NCBI RefSeq assembly: GCF_004010195.1
Contig: NC_057719.1
Coordinates: 49,553,578-49,573,577, forward strand
Reading direction: 5' to 3'
Source: Chiloscyllium plagiosum
Taxonomy: Eukaryota
Length of the DNA stretch: 20,000 nt
Part shown: positions 1 to 20,000 of the stretch, one piece after another
How positions within the stretch are numbered: position 1 is the stretch's first letter
Layout of the letters: every line of letters starts with the position of its first letter
Position numbers and translations under genes: made by a program
Notes under the pieces: generated by a model
The model's input: only the letters and a program-made list of their open reading frames with translations
Database searches by the model: none
Told to the model about the DNA's origin: nothing

Positions 1-682
1 TCGCTCCTCTACAGATCCCTGTGATGACTGTTCCAGTTCATCAGTGGGCACATTGGGATCACTGCTGGCACCTTGAAAGAATTTCCGGAGTCTCATTCGT
101 CTGACGAACTCCTCCGTGTCTGCTGCCAGAACCAACGGGTCCATTTTGGTGGTGGGGCAGAAGTTGAGACCCCTGTTCAGGACTTCAATCTCTTCCGGTC
201 GAAGGGTGTGGTCCAATAAGTTGATAATAGACTTTCCCACAGTGATGTTATCCACTGTGGTGCCAGGGTGGGCTTTGCTATTACTGGTGAGAATGCCAGG
301 TTTCTCCAGCTTTTTGTTCTTTGTTTGTATGTACGTGGTGTAGTTTTGTCGCCTTGTCTGTTTGGCAATGTCGTGTAATTGTACTGATGTATCCTGAGTG
401 TGGACTGAGAGTGTGGACTCCATCTGAATTTCAAGGTTGTGGCGCCTGCTGTAGAGTTGGTGCATGAGATGATTGAGGAGTTTACGAGAAGTGCGATGGC
501 AAAGTCTCTGCATAATCTGTGTTGTAGGTCGACTTGAGTGGGTTCGTGATCTGTCATCCTTTTGGGATCTTTCCTGCTTGCCTGCATTCCTGTAGAAACT
601 TGATGTCTGTGTCGATATGTGCGATCTTCTTGGAGATCCTCTCCACTTTAAGCCGGCAATTAGTGGTGTCGATAGTAGTCAT
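1..682 (-). pseudogene. Disrupted N-terminal region of a PLE RT/GIY-YIG polyprotein
   Basis: In-frame TGA after IPKG, plus at least one frameshift between the two recognisable motif blocks. Confidence 0.75.
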
Positions 683-805
683 GGTATTCGTACAGATGAA
701 AGACTCAACAGACAATCAAGGTATTTTTCAATGTATAATTTCAGTTACATCGCACTGTAAATTTTTGCTGTAAATTCGGTGTCTTAGGATTGAGTCCTCC
801 ACTAT

Positions 806-840
806 CACCTGATGAAGGAGCGATGCTCTGAAAGCTAGTG
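806..840 (+). ncRNA. Minimal type-I hammerhead ribozyme motif (PLE pLTR), core intact
   Basis: cac-CTGATGA-a-GGAGC-gat-GCTCT-GAAA-GC-TA-gtg. Stem I is cac/gtg, stem II is 5 bp, stem III is reduced to the palindrome AGCT, and the cleavage triplet is CUA. Confidence 0.8.
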
Positions 841-1254
841 TGCTTCCAATTAAACCTGTTGGACAATAACCTGGTGTTGTGATTTTTAACTTTGTACATC
901 CCAGTCCAACACCGGCATCTCCAAATCATCCCTGAACAGGTTGATTAGAAAAATAGTGTAAATACTTGACAGGTCTGGCAATATCTGACCTTTCACCAGA
1001 GCAGAGATTTTCTGTTTGTAGATTTGAAAATGATTGTAACAAGTTGATGCCAGTGTTCTCTTCAAGGGAAAAGAAATGTTTCATCATGTAATGTCCATCA
1101 ACCTTCGCTTCCCATTGGAGCTCTGTATTTAAAATTATACGGACCAAACAGGATTTAGAGCAGCAGGATCAGCTTTAAATCATGCTGCCCTCAGAAGCCT
1201 GCCGTTTTGCTGCTGGTGTTCTGTGCATGTTCAAAGCTTAGATTTGTGGTCTAA

Positions 1255-1335
1255 AACAAAATGGAGATGAGGTTGGCAATCAGTCACAGCCTTATCGTGT
1301 AGCATGTTCAATGAGCTGAATGACTTATTCCTTTT
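1255..1335 (+). mobile_element. Degenerate CR1-like LINE 3' tail
   Basis: atggagatgagg..aatcagtcacagccttatc..agcatgttcaatgagctgaatgacttattcct resembles the tail also seen at ~17815-17885. Confidence 0.35.
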
Positions 1336-1599
1336 TTAGTAGCTATTGAGACAGACACATTCACACATACCTAGATTGCACTGGTTTCAGTTTCACATCT
1401 TATAATTTCTGCAGAACAAATGCCTTTTCTTGGGCTCAGAGCAGTGAATGTTCCATTTTATTTGTGTAGTTTTTTTTGTGGTGGCTGCAAGATCTGGATA
1501 GTAAGAGTACAGCCTGTTCTTGTTTGTCAAAGAAAGGCTTCTTCTATCAAATTACCCATTAGTCATTTGGACAGCTGGATTGCAAAGCAGAATGACCCC

Positions 1600-1745
1600 A
1601 ACAATGTGGGCTGAGGTCACCATGAAGGACACTCCTTCTCAACCTCTACCCTCACCTAAGGTGTGGTGACCCTCACGTTAAACCGCCATCAGTCATCTCT
1701 CAAAGAAGAGCAAGCCTATGATCTGATAAGACAATGGCATCTTTT
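1600..1745 (+). repeat. Interspersed repeat fragment (probable SINE 3' part), family not assigned
   Basis: ctgaggtcaccatgaaggac..cttctcaacctc..gtggtgaccctcacgttaaacc..cagcctatg-like string recalled as a common shark repeat. Not verifiable within the window. Confidence 0.35.
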
Positions 1746-1750
1746 AGACC

Positions 1751-1950
1751 TGAGTAATGCTGAAAAATGACACATTTTGCCAAAGCATTTTGTCTTGTAC
1801 TCATCAGAACAATTTGTAGGAATACTAACTCAAGGAAACAAACAACATTTATGCTGCATTAAAGGAAAGCCTGATTGGTAAAGGTGAAATCTATTGATAA
1901 TGATTACTCAAGTTATTGTCCTGGGAAATGAACTAGCAAATGTCTGTTAT
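1751..1950. mobile_element. Left-arm fragment of the hammerhead-bearing inverted-repeat family also at 15909-16335
   Basis: tgagtaatgctgaaaaatgacacattttgccaaagcattttgtcttgtactcatcag matches 15910-15965 directly and 16281-16334 in reverse complement. Decayed minus-strand hammerhead CTGATGA-gtacaagac-AAAA-tgctt at ~1781-1807. Confidence 0.65.
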
Positions 1951-2730
1951 CTTTTAGTTGATTTGTTGCACTGATTTAGTAGCAGGGTTCCACAGCTTAA
2001 ATTAAGCAGAATGCGCCAACAGCAGCAGACAGTTTATTTTTTGAAATGAAAACACATGTAGTTTGATAGGTCATTGCTAATTACTCTCACTCATCATATT
2101 GGTTCTTGCTTTGTAGTTGCACACTAATGTAACAATTTCTGTACGATAAGACAAAGAAATGTAGACCTATCATTTTACATGGAATAGTGATTCAAATAGA
2201 TGAATCTACAGAATACAGTTCGCTCCTAATTTAAGTTTGATTTTACCAGCAAAGATTTTAATTATTGAGTTATTTGAATTTAGCAATGTGAATAATTCGA
2301 TACCTCCAGCTATGAGAATACCATCAGTTGAATTGGGCATCAGTAATATATAGTTGTAGTCATTATCCTTCCGAAAGCAGTGTTTGAAATTCTCCAAAAT
2401 ATTCTATACTATTATGGGCTCTCTACTGTGGTCATGGCTATACTTTTATGCAACATGTCCACTTATCAATACAGTTGCTTTTGGATTATAAGGGAATAAT
2501 CATTGTTTCTTTTGATTTGTTCACAGGATGTGGTTATCGCTGTCTAGGCCAGCCTTTATTGCCTATCTCAAATTGTTAAAAATTGGCCACATTCTAGGTC
2601 TGGAGACACATATAGGCCAAATCAAGCAAAAATGGCTGATTTCCTTCCCTAAAGGGCATTTGTGAACAAATGGGTTTTTATGACCAGATTAGAGTGGTGC
2701 TGGAAAAAGGCAGCATCCACGGAGCAGTAA

Positions 2731-2764
2731 AATCGACGTTTTGGGCCAAAACCCTTCATCAGGA
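2731..2764 (-). ncRNA. Hammerhead motif, decayed (GAAA>AAAA)
   Basis: Reverse complement reads CTGATGA-a-GGGT-tttg-GCCC-AAAA-CG-TC-gatt. Confidence 0.6.
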
Positions 2765-2788
2765 AGGGCTGCAGTGATGAAGAGCTGA

Positions 2789-2823
2789 TTGCTGATGAAG
2801 GGTTTTTGCCTGAAACATCAATT
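2789..2823 (+). ncRNA. Hammerhead motif, core intact, stem III palindrome mutated
   Basis: ttg-CTGATGA-a-GGGT-tttt-GCCT-GAAA-CA-TC-aat. Confidence 0.65.
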
Positions 2824-3227
2824 TTCCTGGTCCTCTGATGCTCCTGACCTACTGTGCTTTTCCAGCACCACTCTAAACTTAACTCTAATCTCCAGTGTCT
2901 GCAGTGCCACAATTGACTGTGATTGCATGCTCATTAGATCAGCTCTTTATTCCAGATTTTTGCTGAAATCAAACTTCATTCTCTTTTCTGATGTGATTCA
3001 AACTCATGTTCCCAATAGCATTGGCTCTGCATTGCCACCCAACTGCTTCCCATTCCCTATCATCTCCAACTCTTTCACAGTCCTCTGTTTAGAGTTTGAG
3101 AGTATAATTTGGCAGTTGGTTTATGTAGTTTAAATGAAATGGAGAAATTCTTTGCACATACACATTTTCTTTTGCAATTTTCACCCTGCCTAACCGCACA
3201 GTTTGGTTTCTTTTTGGTTGAACATTT

Positions 3228-3553
3228 GGTGGCACAGTGGCTCAGTGGTTAGCATGGCTGCCTCACAGCGCCAGGGACCTAGGTTCGATTCCAGCCTCAG
3301 GTGACTGTCTGTGTGGAGTTTGCACATTCTCCCCGCGTCTGCGTGGGTTTCCTCCAGGTGCTCTGGTTTCCTCTCACCATCCAAAGATGTGCAGGTCCCG
3401 TGAATTGACCATACTAAATTGCCGGTAGTGTTACGTGCATTAGTCAGGGGTAAATATAGCGGAATGGGTCTGGGTGGGTTACTCTTCGGAGGGTCGGTGT
3501 GGACTTGTTGGGCCAAAGGGCCTGTTTTTGTACTGTAGGGAATCTAATCTAAT
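3228..3553 (+). mobile_element. HE1-type V-SINE (tRNA-derived), full length
   Basis: A-box region gtggctcagtggttagc, B-box ggttcgattcc, V-domain tgtgtggagtttgcacattctccccgcgtctgcgtgggtttcctcc, CR1-like tail ending in (aatct)n. Two more copies occur in the window. Confidence 0.92.
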
Positions 3554-3597
3554 TTTCCCTTCAGTTTTGTGGTACTGAGGCAAAAAAGGGGGTGGGG

Positions 3598-4380
3598 ACA
3601 AAACGCTAAACCAAAGTGGATATGAAGAGGAGTGATCAAAAAGTTGATCAGTGGTGGGTTTTATGAAGTGTTTGTGGGACATGATTGTCCAGTGGTTATT
3701 ATCACTAAACTATTAATCCTGAGTCCCAGGTAATATTCTGGGTACCCAGGTTTGAATTACATCATGGCAGATAGTGAAATTTCAGTTCAATAGAACACTG
3801 GAATTAGAAGTCTAATAATGCCCACGAATCCATTGTCAATTTGTCAGGAAAAACCTATCTGGTTCAATAATGTCCTTTTAGGAAAAGAAACTGACACTTT
3901 ACCTGGTAGCACATGTGACTCCAGAACCATAACAATGTGATTGACTCTGACTCTAAGCTACCCTCTGGGCAATGAATGCTGGCCTCGCCAGTGAGGCACA
4001 CATCCCATGAATGATTTTTTTTAAAGGAGTAAAAGCATGACTTTGAGGAATAAATTCCAATGTGAGTGTTCTGAGCAACTGAAAGAATAGCCACAGATGA
4101 TAGGTTGTATGAAGTTATTTTCAATGTTGGCAGCTAGTATATAAAGATTTGGCATTGGTTGGCAAAGGATACAGATGTGAGGAGTGGTATGCCTATAAAG
4201 GCATTTAAATGCAAAATAAGAATTTTTAACCTGGAACTGGGAACAAATGTCAGCAAGAACGGATGAGAAATGCACAGCAGTGTTTTGGATAGGCTGGAGT
4301 TTAAAAGATGAAAGGCTACCCATGAATACAAAAGAATAGTGGAGTTTGGAGTTGATCAGAGCATGAATGATGAGCTATAT
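3598..4380 (-). mobile_element. L2-clade LINE 3' fragment, highly decayed, interrupted by the SINE at 3688-4015
   Basis: Minus-strand frames give IHALINSKLHYS..KLQPIQNTAVH..SVLADI..RLKILIL, compared with the L2 ORF2 C-terminal pattern IHAFVTSRLDY..KLQLIQNSAAR..PVLADLHW..FKIL. A 3' end remnant lies at ~3598-3680. Confidence 0.65.
3688..4015 (+). mobile_element. tRNA-derived SINE (non-HE1 family), near full length
   Basis: Head cagtggttattatcactaaacta, B-box-like ggtttgaatt, tail gctggcctcgccagtgaggcacacatcccatgaatga. Related copies at 2519-3035 (minus) and 17120-17275. Confidence 0.75.
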
Positions 4381-6890
4381 TATGGCAGTGGAAGTAGTTT
4401 TTATGATAGAGTTCACTGAATAATGAGAATTATTTTCCACTCCCAAATTATAACCACAATCTCCAATTCAATGGCTATCTTGAGCATCACTCTGGAGATC
4501 AAATTCTTAATTAATGTGCCTCAGGATTGAATTCTGACCATTTTAGTGATTGCCACCTTACTGCCATATTAGCAAGAAATAGCAATGGTGAGTGAGAAGC
4601 AACCTTTTGCCTTCTTGCTCTCAGCATATCTGGAACAATGCTTTGTAACCAAGCTTCAGGGGAATATTAGCATAAGTTACAGGCACCTTGGAGGTGTTGG
4701 GGGTCTCAAGATTTTATTTAGTAATGAGGTTCAGACCGCTGAAAACAGATTGTAAACGTTTTCATATCTGTGACAAATAGTCTGTTGTTTGGAGGGTACT
4801 ATATTAAATTCTTTATTACAGCTAAGGATGAGTACTTCTATCTGATACATTGGAAGTTGCTGTTTCAAGCCAACCTGAGTTGCGGAAAAAAATAATAGGC
4901 TATTTTTGTACCAGCCTTTAAAGATAAACTTTATACATTCTACAGAAGCATATATGTGAGTCCATGCATAACAAATAGATGAAGCTTTATATGGTTTCCT
5001 ACTTTTATGTAAAATTCATCACTGTTTTATTGCACTGGCTTTTCTATATCTAAAGTGTATTAATACCAGTTATGCTGATAAAGCCCTCAGCCTCTATGGT
5101 CCTAAATATTCTATATATCCTACATAAAAGTTTGAATTTTTAAGCGTTTCCCAGTAGATTAGGATGACAATACTGCACAAAAATGTTGCTGATAACAAAA
5201 TCCACAAATGAAGCAAGAATATTCACTGCTGACATTGAAGAATGCTCTTGTGATATGATCTATTAGTCCCAGGATTGAAGACAATCTGAAGCAGCAGTAA
5301 TAGAAATAAGATGTGTTATCTTTGGCTCATGTACAATTCAGTGAACATTATCTGTATTAGTCTTACCTTTAAAATAAAAAAACTTGCATTATTGTGTCAT
5401 CCAACTTTGTGTAATTGGTATATTTACACCTAAGAAATGAGTGTAACATCATTGCAGCTTGTGATTTCTGAACATTTTTGATATTTAAGTACACAACCTA
5501 GCATTCTGGGAGTATGTTATTGAAGATTTGTCTGCAGAATGTACAAGTCTCGATCCTTCCACATATAGATGAAAAGAACTAAACATTTTCTGGGGGAATC
5601 GCACCTTGCTCCAGTCAGCAAGCATAATTGCTAGTAAAACTGTTCAAATTTGGGAGAATTTGTTAATAAAAAGTCTTAATGACATCAACGACAAAGATTA
5701 AGCATTCCAGTCTCAGTCATTAGACTGACAACAAAATCTATTCCTTTTGGGAGATCAGGAAAATTAGAATACTGCAGTCTGACTGATGAAGAAGAATTTA
5801 TGAAGTAACAGCCAGAAAAAGTCTGTAAAAAGTTAACACTCACTATTTGCTTAACTTTGGCAATTCTTAATTATTTTTTCTACTGTTGAGATACTTACAT
5901 TGTGGACAGAATTTACAATTAAATCAAGAAAGAGCACAACTACTCTACCGGTACAGTCACCCAGTAACCAACATCAACTAAGGCAGGTCTTGCAACTCAG
6001 CTAATTTAATCCTAAAAAAGAGCTGGAAGAAACTTGTCTATGTCAAAAGCTCCAGATGAAATTAAAAAGCTGCAAAATGACCATAAAATGCCCACCCATC
6101 GGCTTTACTTTATTTTAACATCACACTGCACAGTTTTCTAATATTGTATACTTGCAACTAGATAAAGAAGCTATTAATATTACTAGAGGTAATGAGACCT
6201 CCCAAACTGAATGCATCAAGTCATCTTAAAAAGCCAGATGAAATATAGTCAACACTCATTGAGCTTCACTCATAATTGATCATGTTCAGAATTCATGTAT
6301 TTAAGAAAAGCAATCATTGCTCAATCCATTACTAGTTGGAGAGACAAGATATGTGATTGCAGTTTCATGGTGGCAGAGCTGGCAGTCAGAACAACTGGGC
6401 TTGTGATTGAATCCAATGGAAGACTTGCATCAAGATACCTTGGACCAGTCCAAAAGGTAGCATCATGGGGGAGTACTCTTACAAAGCAAATGCATGTAAA
6501 CAGTAATGCTAAGCCCTTGGAATTTGTCTACCTCTATCTGTAATTTCGCCACCATTGTTACAATGGAAAAAGGAGACAAATCTCGAAAGCATATAAACTT
6601 TTAATGTTATATGCAAGACTTGTGATGCCAGAAAATGTTAGAAGCACCTATAAAGAATGTAAAGACCAGAATGAAGGGTCAGACAGTACAAACAGCCACT
6701 TTCAAAAGCCAAATGGATACAGTGATCTAACCTGCCATAAGTGTACAAAACACAGTCACGATAACCCCTAAAAATTATTTAGGCAAGCGGTATAATCGTG
6801 ATGAGAATGGTCAGGCCATTGACACAAAAAGTGAACCAACATTCAGTGCAGTAAGCATCAAAGTATGGTACTAATAAAAGTGTTTACACT

Positions 6891-8125
6891 TGTTATGATC
6901 AGTCCCTGGGCAAAGTTATTATGGTTCCAGATGGGATACCTAAAATTATCAAGCTTTTTTTCCTTTCTTTTTCTTTCACCTCACTCTCTTTAATAGCTGC
7001 TCAGCCCCCTTGGTTGGTTACGAAAAGGTTAATGGAAAAGAATAACCATCCCCCCACACACCGCCACCATCAATGCTACCCATGCGCATGCGCACACACA
7101 CCATGGGAGCTTCCTCCCTGACAAAAATTAATTCATGTTTTAAAAGGGAGCCAATTCAACCAGACATTCTTGAGATAACAAAACAGTGAGTTTATTAATT
7201 ACAAAACGCATACATACAAATTAAAAATAAGAATTCGGTCAAAAAAAGTTAAAAGATACACAGGTCAGTCTCTGGGTCGTTTGAAGAAGCTTGGATAGTT
7301 GAGCAGTCAATTTGAGATTCTTGGCTTTGAATTAACTTTCAGGGTTGCTGACCTTCTTCTGTTTTCTTTTAAACAGTGAGACAATGCTTTACTTACAATG
7401 CAGGGTGACAGAATCTACTGGATGGTTCTTTGACTGTGATTGTCACAGCACACTAGGTCAATCATAGGTTATTACATGAGACTGTTACCACATACGACCA
7501 GCATTGAAACTCATTTTTAACCATGGTCCCTGTCTATTCTTGAAAAGGGAAAAATAAGCAAGTTGTTCACCTAGTCTATTAGATTCCCTACAGTATAGAA
7601 ACAGGCCCTTCAGCCCAACCAGTCCACACTGACTCTCCAAAGAGTAACCCACTTCCCTCTGACTAATGCACCTAACACTATGGGTAATTTAGCATAGCCA
7701 ATTCACCTGGCCTGCACATCTTTGGACTGTGGGAGGAAACCAACGCAGACACAGGCAGAATATGCAAACTGCACACAGACAGTTGCCCGAAGCTGGAATC
7801 GAACCTGGGTCCGTGGTGCTGTGAGGCTGCAGTGCTAACTGCTGAGCCATCATGCCACCCCACAGTGTTTTGTCCTATCATATGCACAGCTTAAGATTCT
7901 CACAGTGGTTTGCAGTTCGGTTTTTTTAAAAATTAGATTTATCCTTTGGAATTTTCCTTAATACCTTCAGCTGTGACATTCCAGAGTTCTTCCTCAGACA
8001 GCCACTGAGCTTAACGCCCATAGTCACCTTTTGGCTGTATCTCCACTTGTACATAAAAAACAAAGTTGGAATGAAAACGTAGATATGTCTGAGCTGATCT
8101 GGATTTATGATCCATGATCATGACA
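6891..8125. mobile_element. Solo LTR (~950 bp net of the inserted SINE) with 4-bp target-site duplication CACT
   Basis: Starts TGTTATGATC and ends GATCATGACA (9/10 inverted match, TG...CA). Flanked by CACT at 6887-6890 and 8126-8129. Removing it rejoins the Gypsy-like sequence. Confidence 0.8.
7579..7860 (-). mobile_element. HE1-type V-SINE inserted in the solo LTR
   Basis: Reverse complement of the 3228-3553 element with small internal deletions. B-box ggttcgattcc retained. Confidence 0.9.
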
Positions 8126-9124
8126 CACTGCTCAGATTCTATGCCAACAGATAGAGGGACAGCACAATTTGTATGAACAAAAAACAAAGGTTCTTCTACT
8201 TTGCATACTGAAATATACGTACCATAGAATTACCAATGATAATTTGACCAGCCAGTACTTAACTCTCCTACAGTGGATCTGAGATTCCACATCTGGGATT
8301 CATTACACTCAAGGTCAGCACAAAAATGTATCCTAGTTACCCTGAATAGTTGCATTCTGGATACCAGAAGTCCAGCGTCTGACATTCTACTGACATGCAA
8401 GGATCTGTCTTTGGTCGGAATCCATGGTATTGTCAAGACCATGATGAGCACCAGAGTCCAGAAGGCCCACAATTGGAGAACCTATGCTTACAATGGAAAA
8501 GACCCACTGATGCTGCAAAGCAGATCAACAGCCAACAGGTGACACAATACTGTTCAAACTAAAAAATGTATATCAATTCTGGACTTTAAGTTTTATTGCA
8601 AGCAACACATAATTGCTATTTGGCAGATAAGTGCAGACGAATTATAACTTACTGATACTGTTATGGGTATGTCACTGCTTGATCAAAAAAAGGGAAAGGT
8701 GAATGATGCCCATGGCCGGCACACAGATTGCAAATTAGCCAAGCTGAAAATTGGACAGAAAGTTGAGTATAATATCAAAATGTCAACACCTTGAACCCAG
8801 CAGAAATTGTCAGCATATGTTCAGAACCAAGACCATATCAGGTATGAACACAAAAATGACATAACAATGCAGAAACTCAGATACTAAATAACAGTACTGC
8901 CACAACGAGAAACACTGACCCATCCTCTTATGTATCCCTATTCATCAGTCTTCAGACATGCAGCAGTCTTCAGCAAAAATTACCAGAAGTAAGGTTGTAC
9001 AAAAAAAACAAACCATGATACATTTCGGAAACATATAAATTTATTGCTCTAATTATTTTATTTTATTGTCATGTAAATAGTTTGAATTTGTACTGGTAAA
9101 CATTTGTTTTGGGAAGAAAATGGA

Positions 9125-9400
9125 TGTTGTGTTAGGCCATGCAGGTAGCTTGAGGGATTGCCATTATCGTTATAAAATGTAGAACTATCAATTTTTTACG
9201 TCCTGATTTTAATACCCGGGACTTTTACCAACTGAAATAGCTTCAGAAAGAATAAAGCACTTACTTAACAATAGCTGCAGTGCTCACCTGGCAACAGATT
9301 AGGCAGAAGTCCCATATCCTTCCAAAAGTAAAGCTATCTAAAATCAAAACCTGATTTCTCACAATTGCAGCAAATCACTTCTATACCACTTTTGACAACA
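9125..9400 (+). repeat. Possible 3' LTR remnant of the Gypsy element
   Basis: TGTTGT directly follows the purine tract, AATAAA at 9251, and a possible end at tgacaaca (~9399). No matching 5' LTR found. Confidence 0.3.
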
Positions 9401-9497
9401 GTAATTTGTCTATGTTAGATAATAATGCTGCCGCTATGATAGTTGAGAGTGTGGTGCTGGGAAAGCACAGCAGGTCAGGCAGCAACCGAGGAGCAGG

Positions 9498-9535
9498 GAA
9501 TCGACGTTTCCGGCATAAGCCCTTCATCAGGAATG
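9498..9535 (-). ncRNA. Hammerhead motif in the left pLTR
   Basis: Reverse complement reads attc-CTGATGA-a-GGGC-ttat-GCCG-GAAA-CG-TC-gatt. GUC triplet, ACGT palindrome, and a G.G mismatch at the base of stem II. Confidence 0.75.
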
Positions 9536-11241
9536 AGGCTTGTGGGCTGGGCGGTGGGGAGAGAACTGAGAGATAAATGGGAGGTGTGGTGTGTTTGGGG
9601 GAAAGGTAGCTGAGAATTCGATAGGGAGAAGGTGATGGGTTGGAGAGGAGGGTGGAGTGGATAGATGGGAAGGTGATGGACAGGTCAGGAGAGTGGTGCC
9701 GAGTTGGAGGTTTGATATTGGGATAATGTGGAGGGAGGGGAACTGAGGAAACTGGTGAAATCCACATTGATCCTGTGTGGTTGCAGGGTCCCAAGGTGGA
9801 AGATGAGGCGTTCTTCCTCCAGGCGTCGGGTGGTAAGGGTTTGGCGGTGGAGGAGGCCCAGGACCTGCATGTCCTTGGCAGAGTGGGAGAGGGAGTTGAA
9901 ATGTTCAGCCATGTGGAGATGGGGTTGGTTGGTGCTGGTGTCTCAGAGATGTTTTCTGAAACGATCTGCAAGTAGGCATCCTGTCTCCCCAATTTAGAGG
10001 AGACCACATCAGGTTTTACGGATACAGTTAGGTGACATTGGTAGAGGGCGCAGGTTTTGCACTTGCACCTGATTTTTCCCTCCCTCCCCTTCCTGGACCT
10101 CTCCATCTCCATCTCCGTCGACCGACTAACCACGGACATCTACTACAAGCCCATCGACTCTCACAGCTACCTAGACTACACCTCCTCCCACCCTACCTCC
10201 TGTAAAAACACCATCCCTTATTTCCAATTCCTCTGCCTCCACCTCATCTGTTCCCAGATTGACCAATTCCACCTTAGAAAATCCCAGATGGCCTCCTTCT
10301 TCCAAAATCGCAATTTCCCTTCCCACATGGTTGACAATGCCTTCTAACACATCTCTTCCATTTCCCGCACCACTGCCCTTGAGCTCCATCCCTCCCAATG
10401 CAACAAGGACAGAACCCCCTTCCACCCCACCAACTTCTGCATATATCGCATCATCCTCTGTCACTTCCGCCACCTACAAACAGACCCCACCACCAGATAT
10501 ATTTTTTGCTCCCCACCTCTATCAGCGTTCCAGAGAGACCATTCCCTCCTCAACTCCCTTGTCAGATCCAGGCTTCCCCACAACTAGCGCCCCCCAACCA
10601 CCCCACCAGCTCACACCCCACTCCCGGCATCTTTCCCCGCCACTGCAGGATGTGCAAAACCTGCGCCCACACCATCCAAGGTGCCAAAGGATCCTCCCAC
10701 ATCTGACAGAAATTTACCGGTACCTCTACCAATGTCATCTCTGTATCCATTGCACCTGATGTGATCTCCTCTACTTCAGGGAAACAGAATGCCTTCTTGC
10801 AAATCATTTCAGCGAACATCTCTGAGACACCTGCACGAACTAACCCCACCGCCCCGTGGCTGAACACTTCAACTCCCCCGTCCCACTCCGCCAAGGACAT
10901 GCAGGTCTTGGGCCTCCTCCATCGCCAAACCATTACCACCCGATGCCTGGAGGAAGAACGCCTCATCTTCCAACTTGGGACCCTGCAACCAAGCGGGATC
11001 AATGTGGATTTCAACAGTTTCCTCATTTCCCTTCCCCCAAAATTATATCAGTCCCAAACCTCCAACCTGGTACCGCCCTCCTGACCTGTCCATCACCTTT
11101 CCCATCTATCTGCTCCACCCTCCTCTCCAACCTATCACCTTCTCCCTCACCTTCAACTATCTATTGCATCCTCAGCTATCTTCCTCACAATACCTACACC
11201 CTCCCCCACCCCCACCCAACTTATCTCTCAGACCCCCACAC

Positions 11242-11278
11242 ATTCCTGATGCAGGGCTTATGCCCGAAATATCGATTC
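11242..11278 (+). ncRNA. Hammerhead motif in the right pLTR, mutated core
   Basis: attc-CTGATGC-a-GGGC-ttat-GCCC-GAAA-TA-TC-gatt (A9>C, CG>TA). Confidence 0.6.
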
Positions 11279-11449
11279 TCCTGCTCCTCGGATGCTGCCT
11301 GACCTGCTGTGCTTTTTCAGTTCCACACTCTCGACTCTGATCTCCAGCATCTGCAGTCCTCACGTCCTCCTCTGCCTCTATGATAGGATCACTTAGGTAG
11401 TTATTTATACCTTTCAGAGTAGAGCCCTTTGCTGGCTTACAAAACATTA

Positions 11450-11553
11450 ACAGGGAAAATGCAGGAGATTGACAATAGTGTAAGTCAAAGTGCTAGAACC
11501 GGTGCAGATACAATGAGTTGCAAATCCTCATTCTGTGTAAAAATGATTCTATG
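11450..11553 (+). mobile_element. Degenerate CR1-like 3' tail
   Basis: gggaaaatgcaggaga..agaaccggtgcagatacaatgagttgcaaatcctcattctgtg..gattctatg resembles CR1 3' UTR ends. Confidence 0.35.
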
Positions 11554-12439
11554 TGTGGAAAACTAATGAGCCAGTGATTGGTACCTAAGACAAGTTGAAT
11601 TTTCAAATGGGTCTCTAGTGAGAGAGATTGGGCTTGAATTTTAAAAATTGAGAAGCTCCATGAAATGACAACTTTGAAAAGTGTCATGAAAGGACAGTAA
11701 CTCAGATGGGCTTTCAAGAGCAAGCAACACTTAAAAAGGCGTCTGCTTTTCATACAGTTCTTCATTTACAATAAACTTGTAGTTTCAAAGAGAGCAGCCA
11801 TAAATGCAAGTTACTTGTTTGCACTGTAGTACATCTAATGCAGATATACAGCCTGATTCCTGATGCTGTGCAGGAACCAATATCTGGTCCTAAACCAGGG
11901 ACAGCATCCAACATTCAAAAATGCCGAGTAATCGTCTGGAATTCTTTGGTGAGCCCCCTTGTGGTAATTTAACATGACCAATTTTAGGATCATATAACCT
12001 GGATTTTGATAGCAGCAATGATGGCAAAAACTGTTAGCTTTCACTTGTTGTTACCCCATTGAAACTGACAGCAACTTCTGTTGTCCGCACATGCTGTTGG
12101 TGAGTTAATACCTGCCCAGTGAAAGTGGTGAAGCAAGTGGACAATACTTGAGCCGATCTGCCACATCAGTAGATGACTTAGAAGCAATAACACTACCAGT
12201 CCACAAAACAGGGACAGCTATATGAATTATTTCCTCCCCATTCATCCTCTCTTTTTGGCAGATACGATCCTACTACAGCCGAACCTCGATTATCCGAACG
12301 TGATGGGCGGGCACTATTTTGTTCGGATAATCGATTATTCGGTTAATTGATTAAATGCCTTTTCTCTGGGGCTTGGAGTTTTCTATTAAGTCTGTTCCCT
12401 GTTCAGATCAGGCAGCAGCAACTGCGCGTGAGTCTCCCC

Positions 12440-12570
12440 GTGCCCCCCAACCCCATCCAACACTGCTCCCTGCCCGACCATCAACTCCATCCATTACCAC
12501 CCCCGCCTGCCCCCAACCACATCCAATACTGCACCCGCCTGCCCCCAACCCCATCCAACACCGTCCCCTG
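12440..12570 (+). repeat. C-rich tandem repeat, ~30-bp unit (gcccccaaccccatccaacactgc..cc.gcc), about 4 copies
   Basis: ccccaaccccatccaacac, ccccaaccacatccaatac and ccccaaccccatccaacac recur. Confidence 0.7.
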
Positions 12571-13049
12571 ACCCCCTCACACTAACACAGTCACAGTCTC
12601 TATGACGCCCTCATACTCACCCCATCACTGTCACCCTGTCCCACTCACACTCACTCCATCATCCTTAGCCTGACGCCCCTCACACTCACTCCATCATCCT
12701 CAGCCTGTCACACTCACACTCGCTCCATCACCGTCACCGTGAACCCCTCACACACACTCCATCATCGTCTCCCTGACCCCCTTACAGTCAATCCATTATC
12801 GTCACACTTATCCCCTCACGCTCACATCATCACGGTCACCCTGACCCTCTCACATGCACTCTATCTCAATCTCACTGAACCCCTCACACTCATTACAACA
12901 CCATCAGCCTGACCCCCTCGCATTCACTCCATCACCATCACCTGGACCCCATCACACTCAATCCGCCACCATCACCCTGACTCCCACACATTCACTCCGT
13001 CACAGTGACACTGACCTCCACACACACTCACTCCATCATCCTCACCCTG
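12570..13049 (+). repeat. Degenerate minisatellite, ~30-33-bp unit (tgacccctcacactcactccatcatcctcaccc), about 15 copies, running into the gap
   Basis: cactcactccatca.c.tcaccctgac recurs throughout. Confidence 0.85.
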
Positions 13050-13359
13050 NNNNNNNNNNNNNNNNNNNNNNNNNNNNNNNNNNNNNNNNNNNNNNNNNNN
13101 NNNNNNNNNNNNNNNNNNNNNNNNNNNNNNNNNNNNNNNNNNNNNNNNNNNNNNNNNNNNNNNNNNNNNNNNNNNNNNNNNNNNNNNNNNNNNNNNNNNN
13201 NNNNNNNNNNNNNNNNNNNNNNNNNNNNNNNNNNNNNNNNNNNNNNNNNNNNNNNNNNNNNNNNNNNNNNNNNNNNNNNNNNNNNNNNNNNNNNNNNNNN
13301 NNNNNNNNNNNNNNNNNNNNNNNNNNNNNNNNNNNNNNNNNNNNNNNNNNNNNNNNNNN
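13050..13359. other. Assembly gap (310 N)
   Basis: Run of N. Confidence 1.
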
Positions 13360-14044
13360 AACACCGTCCCCCCGCCCACACTCCCTAGCCTAGCCCCGCC
13401 CACTCCCATCCCCCCATCCATCCCCACCTCCACCCCAGCACGCCCCCACCCTCTCTTCGGGGCAGCCGGACTGGACAACGACAACAAGCCTGCTGCTGTT
13501 GCTACTGCCTTTTGGGGGGTGAGTCTCCAAATAGTGTGCGTGCACGGGCACACACACTTTTTATTGCAACTTTTTGACAGGTTCCACCTTTGCCCTGTAT
13601 AGGACAATGTTGGAAAGATTATCTGGGGAAGGAGGGTTTAGGGTGTCGAACGCTTATGTGGAACTCCAGGGAAAGTGTGGGGAGGGGGAGAGAAGGGTGG
13701 GAGGTGAGTCTTTTAGAGACGATGCCAGGACTTCTCAGCAGCACTTTTATCTCTGTAAACAAAAGACACGATCAGTGTTGGACACACGTCTTTGATGTAA
13801 TGTTTCTATAGGGACCTCGAGATCTCTTCAGATAATCTGATTTTTGGATAATTGGTATTCGAATAATCGAGGTTCCTCTGTAATATGCCATCTTTGACGA
13901 AGTGTTTCCTTTAGTTCTATTAGTATGGTATGTAATGCAATGTAAAATGTTTTATTGCAGCGTCCTATTACATTAGCATTAGTTTGAAGCTCACCACTCC
14001 TGGAGCTTTTTAGTAGCTGCAAAATCAGCAGTAGCTGACCAATT

Positions 14045-14712
14045 AGAACAAAGAATAAAGAATAATACAGCATAGGATCAGGCCCATCAGCCCTCCAAGC
14101 CTGCATCAATATATTCTGCCCTTCCAGACTAAAACTATCTTTACTCACAGGATCTGTATCCTTCCATTCCCTTCCTATTCATATAATCGTCCAGGTGTTT
14201 CTTGAATGCTGCAGTTGTGTCTGCTTCCATCACCTCCACTGGCAACACATTCCAGACACTCATCACCCTTTATGTGGAAAATCCTGCCTCACACATCTCT
14301 TTTAAACTTCCCCCCTCACACCTTGAACCTGCTCCCCCCTGTAATTGATCTCTCCACATTGGGAAAAATCCTCATACTTTCCATTCTATCCATGCCATTC
14401 ACAATCTTCTTAACTCCTATTCTTAACTCCCTTCAACCTCCTGCGTTCCAGTGAAAACAAACCCAGTCCATCCAAGCTTCCTTCAGAGTTACAATCCCCC
14501 ATACCAGGCAACATCCTGGTAAACTTTTCTGTACCCTTTCCAAAGCATCCACATCCTTCTCTTAGTGTGTTGACTAGAATTGTACATAATATTCCAACTG
14601 TGGCCTAATTTAAGTTCTATAAAACTGCAGCATAACCTGTTTATCGTTCTATTCAATGCCCCTTCCAATGAAGGCAAGCATGCCACAAGCCCTTTTTAAT
14701 ACCTTGTCTACT
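14045..14712 (-). mobile_element. CR1 LINE 3' fragment (RT C-terminus plus 3' UTR), decayed
   Basis: Minus frame GMLAFIGRGIE*NDKQVMLQFYRT*IRPQLEYYVQF*STH*EKDVDALERVQK matches the CR1 pattern RPxLEY..QFWSP...KD..ALERVQ. Tail ends in ttcttt/gttct repeats at ~14045-14062. Confidence 0.88.
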
Positions 14713-15217
14713 ATTGGCATATATAATGGCACTGTACTGCTGTTTCAATGTTCAAGTGCAAATTCAGAACTGAGAGCTGACTGTTTTGAAGCTGTTCTTG
14801 ATGATAAAGTAAGGACAAATTGACTATATTAAAAAGAAATTATATTTGTGCAATGTACAGTGGACTGAGATACAAGCATCAGGGTGGTAATGCTCACAGT
14901 GTTACTGTGATTAAGGCAAAAAATTCTAGAAGTACTCACCAGATTGGGCAACATCTGTGGAGAGAGAAACAGTGAACAGCTTGCATTGCACTGGCCAACT
15001 GCCCTGAGAATCTAGCTACCTTAACAGCATGGATTTCCCCTTTCCTGACAACAGCTATTACCAGATCAGGGGTCCTCTTAATGTCCAACAAAGTACTTCC
15101 AAAATTATGGCATACACATGGCATTAATATCAAATCTGGAATTTATGAATTTAAAAATACATCCAGTATTTTAAAAAAGTTATAATAGTTGTTTGAGAAA
15201 GACAACGGAACGAGGAC

Positions 15218-15793
15218 ATGCCACAACCCAAAGGACTAGCCACACTACCATACATCAGGAGCATTTCAGAACTGACAGCCAGATTACTGCAACCACTAGG
15301 ACTTATAACAGCACACAAACCAACAGCCATCCTCAGACAACAACTCACCAGAACGAAGGACCCGATACCCAGCATGAGCAAAACTAATGTAGTGTACAAA
15401 ATCCCATGCAAGGACTGCACAAAACACTATATAGGACAAACAGGAAGACAGCTAACGATCCACATCCATGAACATCAACTAGCCACGAAACGCCACGACC
15501 AGCTATCCTTAGTAGCCACACATGCAGATGACAAGCAACATGAATTCGACTGGGACAACACTACCATTATAGGACAAGCCAAACAAAGAACAGCCAGGGA
15601 ATTCCTAGAAGCATGGCACTCATCCACAAACTCCATCAACAAACACATCGACCTGGACCCAATATACCGGCCACTACAGCGGACAGCTGAAACTGACAAT
15701 CGGAAGCGGCAGGGACAGGCCACTATAAATGCCGGAGGAAACACCACAGAAGCGCTTCACAGGAGGCTCCCAAGCACTGAGGATGTCACCTAG
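15218..15793 (+). CDS. Uninterrupted 191-aa C-terminal fragment of a PLE polyprotein (GIY-YIG endonuclease); probably not expressed
   Basis: ORF track. VVY...YIG, conserved His, Glu (REFLE) and Asn (SIN). The RT part is missing, with an in-frame TGA at 15194 in the flank. Confidence 0.75.
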   Translation: MPQPKGLATLPYIRSISELTARLLQPLGLITAHKPTAILRQQLTRTKDPIPSMSKTNVVYKIPCKDCTKHYIGQTGRQLTIHIHEHQLATKRHDQLSLVATHADDKQHEFDWDNTTIIGQAKQRTAREFLEAWHSSTNSINKHIDLDPIYRPLQRTAETDNRKRQGQATINAGGNTTEALHRRLPSTEDVT

Positions 15794-15813
15794 ACAGGGG
15801 ACGAAACGTTTGC
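15774..15813 (+). ncRNA. Minimal hammerhead ribozyme motif, core intact
   Basis: gca-CTGAGGA-t-GTCACCT-agac-AGGGGAC-GAAA-CG-TT-tgc. Stem I is gca/tgc, stem II pairs 6/7 bp, palindrome AACGTT, triplet GUU. Confidence 0.85.
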
Positions 15814-15908
15814 AACAAAAATTCCCAGCTCGGCGAACAGAACCACAACAACGAGCACCCGAGCTACAAATCTTCTCACAGACTTTGAGTTGTTTGACAA
15901 CACAGAAG

Positions 15909-16335
15909 TTGAATATTATTGAAAAAGACACATTTTGATTCAGTTTTTTTGTTTTGTACTCATCATGGCATTTAACAACATTTAATACTACTTGAGTGTT
16001 GCCATGGACAATGCATCAGTTAACATGATGACTGATAGTTAACTGCCAAACTTTAAAGTTAGACCATTTCTGATTTTCCAAGGCATTGCCCTGAGGAATG
16101 AGCCACGGAATACCTGTTGCCGATTTTGTTAAGTTGAAATGGAGCAATGTGTGTTCATGTTCTTTCTGTCTGTAAAGAACAGGGCCTTGTATGTTAATAT
16201 ATGTAGTTTCCAGTGCACAGTGTGCCAAACTGCAGGACCGACTGCCAATCTTAAATTGGTTGTCAGCCTAATTCAGTGTTCTGATGAATGTCAGATGAAA
16301 AGCTTCAACAAAATGTGGCTTCTAGCAATACTCAA
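15909..16335. mobile_element. Non-coding ~430-bp inverted-repeat element with a hammerhead motif in each arm
   Basis: Left ttgaatattattgaaaaagacacattttg..gtactcatca versus the reverse complement of the right arm ttgagtattgctagaagccacattttgttgaagcttttcatctgacattcatcag. A second partial copy lies at 1751-1950. Confidence 0.7.
16277..16310 (+). ncRNA. Minimal hammerhead motif with AAGCTT stem III
   Basis: tgtt-CTGATGA-AT-gtcag-AT-GAAA-AGCT-TC-aaca. Stem I tgtt/aaca is a perfect 4 bp, stem II is only 2 bp, triplet UUC. Confidence 0.6.
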
Positions 16336-16634
16336 AACTCACAATGAGGAATTTGATTTTTTTAGGATTAGTGACACTATTTACCAGTAATTATGAACTT
16401 AGCATGCTATTAAAAATCCAATTATACCTCATTCAACTTTTCTAGGGGCTTTTACAGCATAACTAGTTGTATAAAATGACATGATTTCGACTTGCTTACA
16501 GCTTGAGGGTCATCAGGGTGTCTCATGATGAAATGTGTTACTAAGTTATGGCAAATGCTTACAATTCCACCATCATTTCTCCCTGAGCTACTGTTTCAAG
16601 TTAATGATTATCAAAACTACAAAACTTTGGGCGT

Positions 16635-18063: not shown

Positions 18064-18358
18064 ATTAGATTAGATTACATTACAGTGTGGAAACAGGCCC
18101 TTCGGCCCAACAAGTCCACACCGCCCCGCCAAAGCGCAACCCACCCATACCCCTACATTAACCGCTTACCTAACACTACAGGCAATTTAGCATGGCCAAT
18201 TCACCTGACCTGCACATCTTTGGACTGTGGGAGGAAACCGGAGCACCCGGAGGAAACCCACGCAGACACAGGGAGAACATGCAAACTCCACACAGTCAGT
18301 TGTGGAGTCTCTGGCGCTGTGAGGCAGCAGTGCTAACCACTGTGCCACCGTGCCGCCC
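18064..18358 (-). mobile_element. HE1-type V-SINE lacking its B-box
   Basis: Reverse complement of 3228-3553 with (aatct)n tail at 18064-18077. The B-box segment is replaced at ~18300-18308. Confidence 0.92.
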
Positions 18359-18934: not shown

Positions 18935-20000
18935 AGATTTTTTTATTATTTTACAACAAATACAAAACAATGCAATTCAAAACAGTACAAAAATAGTACA
19001 AAACTAAACCCAAATAATAAAAAAAATCCCCAAATCACCCTCCTATACGAATGTATAAACATATATAGGGAAGTATAAAATTAAAATAAAAACCTAAACT
19101 TGCTATTTAACTAACTAAATAAATACCTAACAACAAACAAATAAATAGAAATAACTCAGCCCAGCCAAACAAAACACTCATACATTCACAGTTCCTCCTC
19201 CCTGGATATTGGACTCATGAAACACAATTGTTGCGGCTTTTTAAAAGCCCTTGTTAGTGTGGCAGATAAATCTGTGTCCAGGTATTTCAAAAAGGGTTGC
19301 CATGTCTTGTAAAAATTCTCAGTTTTGTGGTGTACCATATTTGTGAGAAAATCCAGGGGAATATGCTCCATAACAATCTTCCGCCAACCCGACAGGCCTG
19401 GGGGGTTTTCTGATATTCAACCTAACAAGATATTCTTCCTTGCACAGAATGTAAGAATATTGAAAAGTTTTTCCTTATGCGAGTCTGCAGGAAATGCAAT
19501 GGGTCGGCCCAAAAGGAGCTAATAGGGTCCTTCTCCACCCCTACACCTAAAGTCCTCTCCATTGCACCCACCACAGCGCTCCAATATGTTTGAAGCCTGT
19601 CACAAGACCAAAGACAATGGGTAAGAGTACCCGGACAGACCTTGCACTTGGAACATGCTGAAGATACCCCTGGTTTAAATTTTGACAAACGGTCTGGGGC
19701 TAAGTGGACCCTGTGGAGAATCTTCAACTGTAAAGCATGGGTCCTATTGCAAATTGATATCTTCCTTGCATTCTCCCAAATATCCACAATGCCTCTGAAG
19801 AAACTTGAATACCCAGCTCTCTTTCCCACATCTTGCAGAGTCGATCAGATTCATCTGAGGTGGCACCCCCCAATTAGTGATATAGAGTACTGACAGAGAG
19901 TGTAGTCTTAGCCCTTAGTACCCCTCTTTCTATGTCAGATTTGTAGGGATCAGTCAAAAGTGTGGTCTTTTTTTGAATAAAATCCCTAACTTGAAAAAAA
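18935..20000 (-). mobile_element. L1-clade LINE 3' portion (ORF2 C-terminal zinc finger plus T-rich 3' UTR), runs off the window end
   Basis: IWENARKISICNRTHALQLKILHRVHLAPDRLSKFKPGVSSACSKCKVCPGTLTHCLWSCDRLQTYW matches the L1 pattern C-x2-C..HxxWxC. Also MEHIPLDFLT..FYKTWQPFLKYL. Frameshifted, with an A-rich end at ~18937-18952. Confidence 0.88.

Follow-up and report, generated by a model that had tools for sequence, protein, structure and literature searches.

The window, the 20,000-nucleotide stretch of Chiloscyllium plagiosum contig NC_057719.1 analyzed here, contains nine hammerhead ribozyme motifs that are real and occur above chance expectation. In the reading that we favor, to which we assign a probability of about 0.88, they are minimal type-I hammerheads (min-HHRs) situated in the ends of six truncated retroelement insertions, with families A, B, and C matched to Penelope-like elements (PLEs) and family D a likely PLE, and they are probably inert remnants whose cleavage of RNA would require a same-family partner or the protein of the element. 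The original prediction of minimal type-I hammerheads of PLE pLTRs with a palindromic stem III is borne out, in that PLE protein remnants lie next to A, B, and C and D has a corresponding layout.

Occurrence of hammerhead motifs in the window

Copies are named here for the window position of C3, with that of H17 given second. Motif scanning places the family A copies at 2762/2735 (-), 2792/2819 (+), 9530/9503 (-), and 11246/11273 (+), that of family B at 15777/15810 (+), that of family C at 809/837 (+), and those of family D at 1807/1782 (-), 15966/15941 (-), and 16281/16306 (+). Sequence check and scan located all nine motifs at the positions originally claimed for them, and the four stem designs distinguished at that time correspond to these four families. 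When a perfect core, a palindrome, a stem I of at least 3/4, and a stem II of at least 2 pairs were required, the scan returned 3 matches, compared to a mean of 0.017 (maximum 1) in 60 dinucleotide shuffles of the window, which served as the chance baseline. Permitting one core mismatch gave 4 matches (shuffle mean 0.083, maximum 1; 60 shuffles) and dropping the palindrome rule gave 6 (shuffle mean 0.85, maximum 3; 60 shuffles), one of which, 7997(-), lies outside the nine motifs. This candidate and two others from the relaxed scan, 7361(-) and 13831(-), the latter without a stem II, were dismissed as chance; none of the three has the palindrome or family homology. Flanking homology unites the four A copies and likewise the three D copies, and three of the six insertions hold two motifs each as inverted arms; the nine motifs represent six insertions and hence are not nine independent events.

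It could be argued that a short descriptor has simply been matched by chance, given that an Rfam search of the window (E <= 10) returned 7 weak matches and no hammerhead family, and that in monomer folding none of the copies surpasses its shuffles (z from -1.26 to 1.37). However, monomer folding is not to be expected of a min-HHR, and the excess of strict matches over shuffles, together with family homology and PLE context, refutes this explanation, which retains next to no probability.

Element families carrying the motifs

Pfam searches with 10 window fragments left the PLE pieces unmatched, the sole match being a weak zf-RVT at 19425-19844; the assignments below draw on protein matches and layout. 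Family A is represented by two insertions. The first is short (2686..2905, both strands; inverted repeats I12 and I16) and consists of two inverted pLTR ends, one with a min-HHR in which G12 is changed to A (2731..2765, -; motif scan and stem analysis) and one with a min-HHR in which the palindrome is broken (ACAT), the closing pair is G·U, and the proximal pair of stem I is lost (2789..2823, +). The second (9436..11357, both strands; inverted repeats I1, I3, I8, I10, and I13) is a 5'-truncated, putatively Neptune-type PLE with an inverted 3' copy (10026-9436, -). Its coding remnant (10081-11062, +; tblastn) covers the reverse transcriptase (RT) thumb, the CxxC linker, and GIY-YIG, and is 72-77% identical to three Chiloscyllium punctatum proteins with PF26215, one of which also has PF00078; a homolog search with 10847-11044 found none among 3 candidates. 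Of its two min-HHRs, that at 9499..9533 (-) has intact core boxes and ACGT with a G·G pair closing stem II, and that at 11243..11277 (+) has A9 changed to C and the palindrome ATAT. Helix I of family A is weak (2 pairs, a mismatch, and 1 pair), and the shared sequence extends at least 53-86 nt beyond H17.

The single family C insertion includes an N-terminal piece of a putatively Neptune-type PLE ORF (1..682, -), which is frameshifted, has its ATG at 682, and exits the left edge of the window. It is matched by phmmer (E 4.5e-31) to P0030, a protein of 881 aa with RT, the CxxC linker, and a GIY-YIG-type motif, residues 10-201 of which map by tblastn to 655-76 in two frames. Adjoining the ORF start is an inverted pLTR piece (683..930, +; right boundary approximate, single copy), and the hammerhead lies on the strand opposite to that of the ORF. 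This min-HHR (806..840, +) is near-intact, with a 3-bp stem I, a full core, a 5-bp stem II closed by G·U, an extra A after A9, the palindrome AGCT, and the cleavage triplet UA. Relatives of A (P0024 and P0025) carry a CX2-5CxxC linker between RT and GIY-YIG, as does P0030, and Neptune-clade PLEs share this linker as well as 5' truncation, an inverted 5' copy, and a tail (PMC8557442); families A and C would thus be Neptune-type by a linker that is also found in Nematis.

Family B comprises the C-terminal 198 codons of a PLE ORF with GIY-YIG (15197..15793, +; ORF list and protein match), which is 93% identical to P0001 of C. punctatum (PF00078 and PF26215). Its close relatives P0001, P0006, and P0017 carry motifs of both RT and GIY-YIG and lack a CX2-5CxxC linker, and since the linker is missing in these relatives (the window holds the 3' part only), the family is considered Poseidon-type. 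The reading frame enters the hammerhead and stops in the stem II loop. This min-HHR (15774..15813, +) has a canonical core, an extra nucleotide, a G10.1-C11.1 pair, the palindrome ACGT, a 3-bp stem I, and the triplet UU.

Family D has a different design: stem II is 2 bp long, the extra nucleotide is lacking, and the palindrome has 6 nt. Its copies share sequence for 28-32 nt beyond H17. One copy (1751..1811, -) comprises a min-HHR with G12 changed to A and a palindrome of 4/6, along with a shared tail of about 30 nt. The other two are the inverted ends of one insertion (15910..16337, both strands): a badly decayed min-HHR (15937..15969, -) with C3 and G12 changed, a palindrome of 2/6, and the triplet UG, and a min-HHR (16277..16310, +) with core boxes, AAGCTT, and a 4-bp stem I intact and an A-U pair closing stem II. 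The predicted fold of this last copy buries the CUGAUGA box, such that misfolding is predicted. A short open frame lies upstream of the minus-strand hammerhead (16100-16267, -). A 57-residue protein fragment of this family may resemble the C-terminus of a PLE endonuclease; searches with it returned no significant match (best E 0.63 among 175 proteins; no usable Atlas match). Because the fragment is unmatched, the PLE origin of D, which we consider likely, rests on layout and motif. The three D copies resemble the small-helix-III variants described in PMC4209133.

Integrity of the motifs

The core (CUGANGA, GAAA, and UH in type-I order) is perfect in five of the nine copies (809, 2792, 9530, 15777, and 16281), carries a single change in three (1807, 2762, and 11246), and carries several in 15966. 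Positions 15.2-16.2 are perfectly palindromic in six copies (AGCT, ACGT three times, ATAT, and AAGCTT) and broken in 1807, 2792, and 15966. An extra nucleotide between 9 and 10.1 is present in the six copies of families A, B, and C and missing in the three D copies. The pair at G10.1-C11.1 that closes stem II is G-C in five copies, G·U in two, G·G in one, and A-U in one. Hence, of the copies originally listed as having intact cores (806, 15774, 16277, and possibly 9498), only that at 15774 (C3 at 15777) proved fully canonical, whereas 809 has G10.1·U11.1, 16281 has A10.1-U11.1, and 9530 has G10.1·G11.1. Eight of the nine copies are damaged at key positions. Stems I, II, and III vary in sequence from one family to another yet keep pairing; within families, each with only one to four decayed copies, differences mostly break pairs. 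A metagenome pattern scan for relatives of family A, covering 120 of an estimated 160 or so loci, found plausible stems in 4 loci and blastn similarity to the four pLTRs of the window in none, so no covariation set was obtained.

The C11.1-G12 dinucleotide is altered in seven of the nine copies. Changes affect 7 of 18 C11.1/G12 positions versus 2 of the remaining 90 core positions (Fisher p 3e-5), a statistic that is biased by the recognition of motifs through their core boxes and for which the ancestral states of C and D were inferred from one and three copies, respectively; six of the seven C11.1/G12 changes are CpG-type transitions. A G10.1-C11.1 pair followed by the catalytic G12 would create a CpG in DNA, and methylation-driven decay of this CpG may disable most copies. 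A literature search for hammerhead CpG deamination in Penelope elements found no paper.

Potential for RNA cleavage

Published work on PLEs suggests that two hammerheads of one family, when present in an active tandem element, would pair via the palindrome and stem I, and that the resulting double hammerhead would cut slowly. Reverse transcription may begin slightly downstream of the hammerhead on uncut RNA and usually end early, so that most insertions would retain the pLTR end alone, often twice via 5' inversion; inverted 5' copies have been described for PLEs (PMC8557442). In every copy here, the DNA continues across the scissile bond, and the family-shared sequence past H17 fits an uncleaved template with a 3' tail (PMC11167929).

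The suggestion that intact copies could cleave any read-through transcript is not supported. No strand of the window carries two intact copies of one family, each near-intact copy being alone of its family on its strand; a single min-HHR assayed in published work did not cleave (PMC4209133), and the hammerhead of the Poseidon element PAc of Anolis carolinensis cleaves only with its protein present (PMC11167929). The hammerhead motifs of the window likely do not cut host RNA, as judged from sequence. Homodimer energy gaps calculated from nearest-neighbor energies are 4.2 kcal/mol for 15777, 6.0 kcal/mol for 809, and 9.9-27.2 kcal/mol for the other seven, and because theirs are the least unfavorable, 15777 and 809 may retain the ability to cut when paired with a copy at a different locus. 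A stronger version, in which these two copies cut read-through or intronic host RNA in vivo, either by pairing in trans with same-family copies of other transcripts or through assistance from PLE protein, with a real effect on the transcriptome, could draw on the fully canonical core and smallest homodimer gap of 15777, the young appearance of family B given its protein identity to its relative, and the aid that PLE protein gives to cleavage in vitro (PMC11167929). It is nevertheless quite improbable: published min-HHR activity is low even for dimers and absent for monomers (PMC4209133), Anolis RNA-seq has no reads starting or ending at the site (PMC11167929), only one of nine Xenopus dimer retrozymes cleaved (bioRxiv 10.64898/2026.07.22.740005), and no host gene was identified within the window. 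A sequencing-run search for positions 1-9600 listed no RNA run.

The suggestion that families sharing a palindrome might cross-dimerize fared no better. A and B are the only families that share ACGT, and stem III does pair 4/4 between 15777 and either 2762 or 9530. In a double hammerhead, however, stem I is likewise intermolecular, and a common palindrome is therefore insufficient: an A core with a B strand makes 1/4 stem I pairs and a B core with an A strand 2/4, the junction-proximal pair being broken in both directions, and the 2.1-1.1 pair is missing from the A/B structures that were built. Moreover, the A copies with ACGT and the B copy are on opposite strands, the AGCT of C pairs just 2/4 with ACGT, and the 6-nt palindrome of D is out of register with the 4-nt palindromes, which makes active cross-family dimers very improbable. 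No paper on palindromic Penelope hammerhead heterodimers was found in a literature search.

Relation to known elements and implications

The shark families are additions to a class of ribozyme motifs described in 2014. As in the min-HHRs of PMC4209133, the motifs have the type-I order, core boxes, an unpaired nucleotide between 9 and 10.1, G10.1-C11.1, palindromic 15.2-16.2, and a short helix I, and they are mostly single dispersed motifs of truncated PLEs with close opposite-strand pairs and several families per genome. The weak helix I of family A differs from that description, which is not known to name a cartilaginous fish in its main text; a literature search for shark PLE hammerheads found nothing in main texts beyond a 2026 preprint, among 40 of 1,489 papers on cartilaginous fish none mentions hammerhead ribozymes, and the supplements of both sources may list shark motifs. 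Like family B, PAc (PMC11167929) is Poseidon-type, has a pLTR hammerhead, and has an insertion that reaches past the cleavage site, but its hammerhead overlaps the start of its ORF, whereas the frame of family B ends inside the hammerhead, and it has been studied biochemically, whereas the shark elements are described here from sequence.

The preprint (bioRxiv 10.64898/2026.07.22.740005) describes tandem animal non-LTR retrozymes with type-I hammerheads of PLE origin, which are present in the sole chondrichthyan sampled, and some copies in the window, those of D above all, might be non-autonomous retrozyme monomers instead of truncated PLE ends. The stem II, palindrome, and missing extra nucleotide of D would suit this view, as would its unmatched flanking frame. 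It is nonetheless decidedly unlikely. The window has no tandem hammerhead units, none being found when the 20 largest of its 51 direct-repeat families were inspected; same-family neighbors less than 2 kb apart are all inverted; the D copies have no more than about 30 nt in common past H17 and are placed as inverted arms, which is the PLE pattern; and retrozymes are traced back to PLE pLTRs in the preprint itself.

Reported min-HHR counts are about 4,000 in coelacanth and 9,000 in Xenopus tropicalis (PMC4209133), and the density of nine motifs per 19,690 called bases, if typical, would lie above both. A far-reaching extension, namely that hammerhead motifs number on the order of 10^5 in bamboo sharks, far in excess of published vertebrate counts, that intact copies of young families cleave host pre-mRNA either in trans or aided by PLE protein, and that the unavoidable C11.1-G12 CpG is a built-in timer that disarms copies after insertion, is a speculation to which we give little credence. 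As it stands, the finding is of small weight, adding more families to a known class. For those who count such motifs, it implies that a shared palindrome does not permit cross-family dimers and that raw counts overstate the active load, since the closing pair and the general base share the CpG, which is altered in most copies here. Should the motifs prove to cut, with RNA ends at these sites in shark RNA, they would provide in vivo evidence on the role of PLE hammerheads.

Detection of the hammerhead motifs

A descriptor scan combining the core boxes, a 2- or 4-nt stem III insert, UH and stems I and II recovered three strict matches, 809+, 15777+ and 16281+ (motifs are named by the position of C3 and the strand), whereas 60 dinucleotide shuffles averaged 0.017. 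Permitting a single core mismatch raised this to four matches, the shuffles then averaging 0.083. Flanking homology groups four copies as family A (2762-, 2792+, 9530- and 11246+) and three as family D (1807-, 15966- and 16281+), and this homology ties the remaining motifs to the scan matches; 15777 and 809 are the single copies of families B and C. All nine hammerheads of the original prediction were recovered at their proposed positions, with the strict scan far above its shuffles. No matching Rfam hammerhead model was found in the whole window at E ≤ 10, and none of the nine motifs folded as a monomer better than shuffles; such poor monomer folds are expected since the motifs lack helix III.

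The window is rich in repeats (19,690 called bases) and no host gene was identified within it. An element at 12271-13885, presumably a non-autonomous DNA transposon of Tc1/mariner type, has 28-nt terminal inverted repeats around a 34-nt imperfect tandem array and an assembly gap. A repeat of ~300 nt, which we take to be a likely shark HE1-type SINE, has copies at 7578-7860 and 18081-18358 and a third, inverted copy upstream, and the 3' part of a LINE-like element lies at 19186-20000 (-), with a weak zf-RVT match (E 0.007).

Insertions matched to, or likely from, Penelope-like elements

Six insertions account for all nine motifs. Family B comprises a 198-codon open frame with the 15777 hammerhead at its end, 93% identical to a Chiloscyllium punctatum protein carrying RT and PF26215 domains; the CX2-5CxxC linker is absent from its protein relatives, which points to an element of Penelope/Poseidon type. 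The frame crosses stem I and the CUGAGGA box (15774-15793, +) and stops within the stem II loop, and two relatives (P0001 and P0003) terminate at the same place. The hammerhead of the Anolis element overlaps the ORF start, whereas that of family B lies at the end of the frame.

Family A is represented at 9436-11357 by a 5'-truncated element whose 3' end is repeated as an inverted copy on its left. This remnant aligns to proteins with the RT thumb, linker and GIY-YIG motif, the best matches being from the bamboo shark C. punctatum (72-77% identity). Together with the family B match, this makes a bamboo shark or a near relative the likely source of the DNA. A second insertion (2686-2905) consists of two family A pseudo-LTR (pLTR) ends, mutually inverted. 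The family C hammerhead (809+) lies within a piece inverted relative to the start of an ORF. This ORF has its ATG at 682- and aligns with the N-terminal part of P0030, a protein of 881 aa with RT, linker and GIY-YIG motif. In this copy (682-930) the inversion junction is only a few bases from the ATG, and the ORF start is present with no direct upstream pLTR visible. Family D occurs as an inverted pair (~15910-16337) and a single end (~1751-1811); its 57-residue frame had no protein match in the searches made, and its layout suggests a Penelope-like element (PLE) origin. At 15890-15910 the family B insertion ends alongside family D's left arm, which may reflect one PLE having inserted next to another. 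Truncation, inverted 5' copies and tails belong to the PLE pattern described in PMC8557442.

Decay of individual copies

Only 15777 is canonical throughout. Stem II is closed by G·U in 809 and by A-U in 16281, where its pairing probability is 0.0 and a predicted hairpin buries CUGAUGA; 9530 has G·G at this closing position. G12, to which PMC6155905 assigns the role of general base, is lost from 2762, 1807 and 15966; A9 is lost from 11246, and both palindrome and stem I are broken in 2792.

The C11.1-G12 dinucleotide is CpG in the two copies that keep it intact and changed in the other seven, six of these by C>T or G>A. Changes affect 7/18 C11.1/G12 positions versus 2/90 at other core positions (p 3e-5), a statistic inflated by the way the motifs were recognised and dependent on ancestral states reconstructed from few copies. 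Methylated CpG decays in vertebrate genomes, and we infer that this caused the changes. In 11246-11277 (+) both bases of the central CpG have also decayed, taking the family A ACGT to ATAT, still a perfect palindrome.

Dimer formation and genomic load

In a double hammerhead (the dimer model is that of PMC4209133) the palindromes pair antiparallel, so that, reasoning from the type-I order, each core would take its partner's U16.1-H17 strand (H17 is the nucleotide 5' of the scissile bond), and stem I is thus also intermolecular. This counts against the proposal that families with a common palindrome might cross-dimerise: A and B have ACGT in common and pair at 4/4 stem III positions, but stem I pairs at only 1/4 and 2/4, with the core-adjacent pair broken in both directions. 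AGCT and ACGT pair at 2/4 positions. The original interpretation is supported in part, for its PLE context and not for cross-family dimers. By rough nearest-neighbour energies, which leave core tertiary contacts out of account, the homodimers nearest their monomer ensembles are 15777 (gap 4.2 kcal/mol) and 809 (6.0 kcal/mol); gaps are 9.9-27.2 kcal/mol for the remaining seven and 10.5-25.6 kcal/mol for all 18 hetero-pairs of equal length. One pair only, 9530 and 2762, shares strand and family and has matching palindromes; 6.8 kb separates the two, and each is damaged. A point against the passenger reading set out below is that 15777 and 809 may be competent when a different locus supplies the partner.

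The density of the nine motifs over 19.7 kb is 0.46 per kb, or 0.15 per kb by the strict test. Were this single window, picked for its density, typical, extrapolation would give strict motifs at ~1.5 x 10^5 per Gb, far more than the ~4,000 hammerheads of coelacanth and ~9,000 of Xenopus tropicalis reported in PMC4209133. The PLE minimal hammerhead class has been in the literature since 2014, as has the occurrence of several families in one genome and of closely spaced pairs on opposite strands. No account of these shark families, of cross-family hammerhead dimers or of CpG decay of the core was found in a search of the main text of open-access papers. In a metagenome pattern scan for family A, none of the 120 listed loci was related to the window's families; two, L002 (104-146, +) and L022, carry unrelated, well-formed minimal hammerheads with a 5-bp stem II, an extra A and ACGT.

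Activity and retention of the hammerheads

DNA is present on both sides of the scissile bond in every motif, and family-shared sequence extends beyond H17 for 53-86 nt or more in A and ~30 nt in D, the two multi-copy families on which these extents rest (B and C are single copies). The templates of the cDNAs were therefore likely RNAs that had not been cut at the hammerhead concerned. This reading fits the Anolis Poseidon study (PMC11167929), which describes an internal reverse-transcription start downstream of the hammerhead, unprocessed RNA as the main substrate, cleavage only with the element's protein present, and zero RNA-seq reads starting or ending at the hammerhead site. A Schistosoma minimal hammerhead did not cleave when single, and dimers had only low activity (PMC4209133); cleavage was seen for one of nine dimer retrozymes from Xenopus (bioRxiv 2026.07.22.740005). 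Judged from sequence, the motifs are most likely passengers: their position a short way in from the end at which copying begins would see them carried along, and after insertion they would degenerate.
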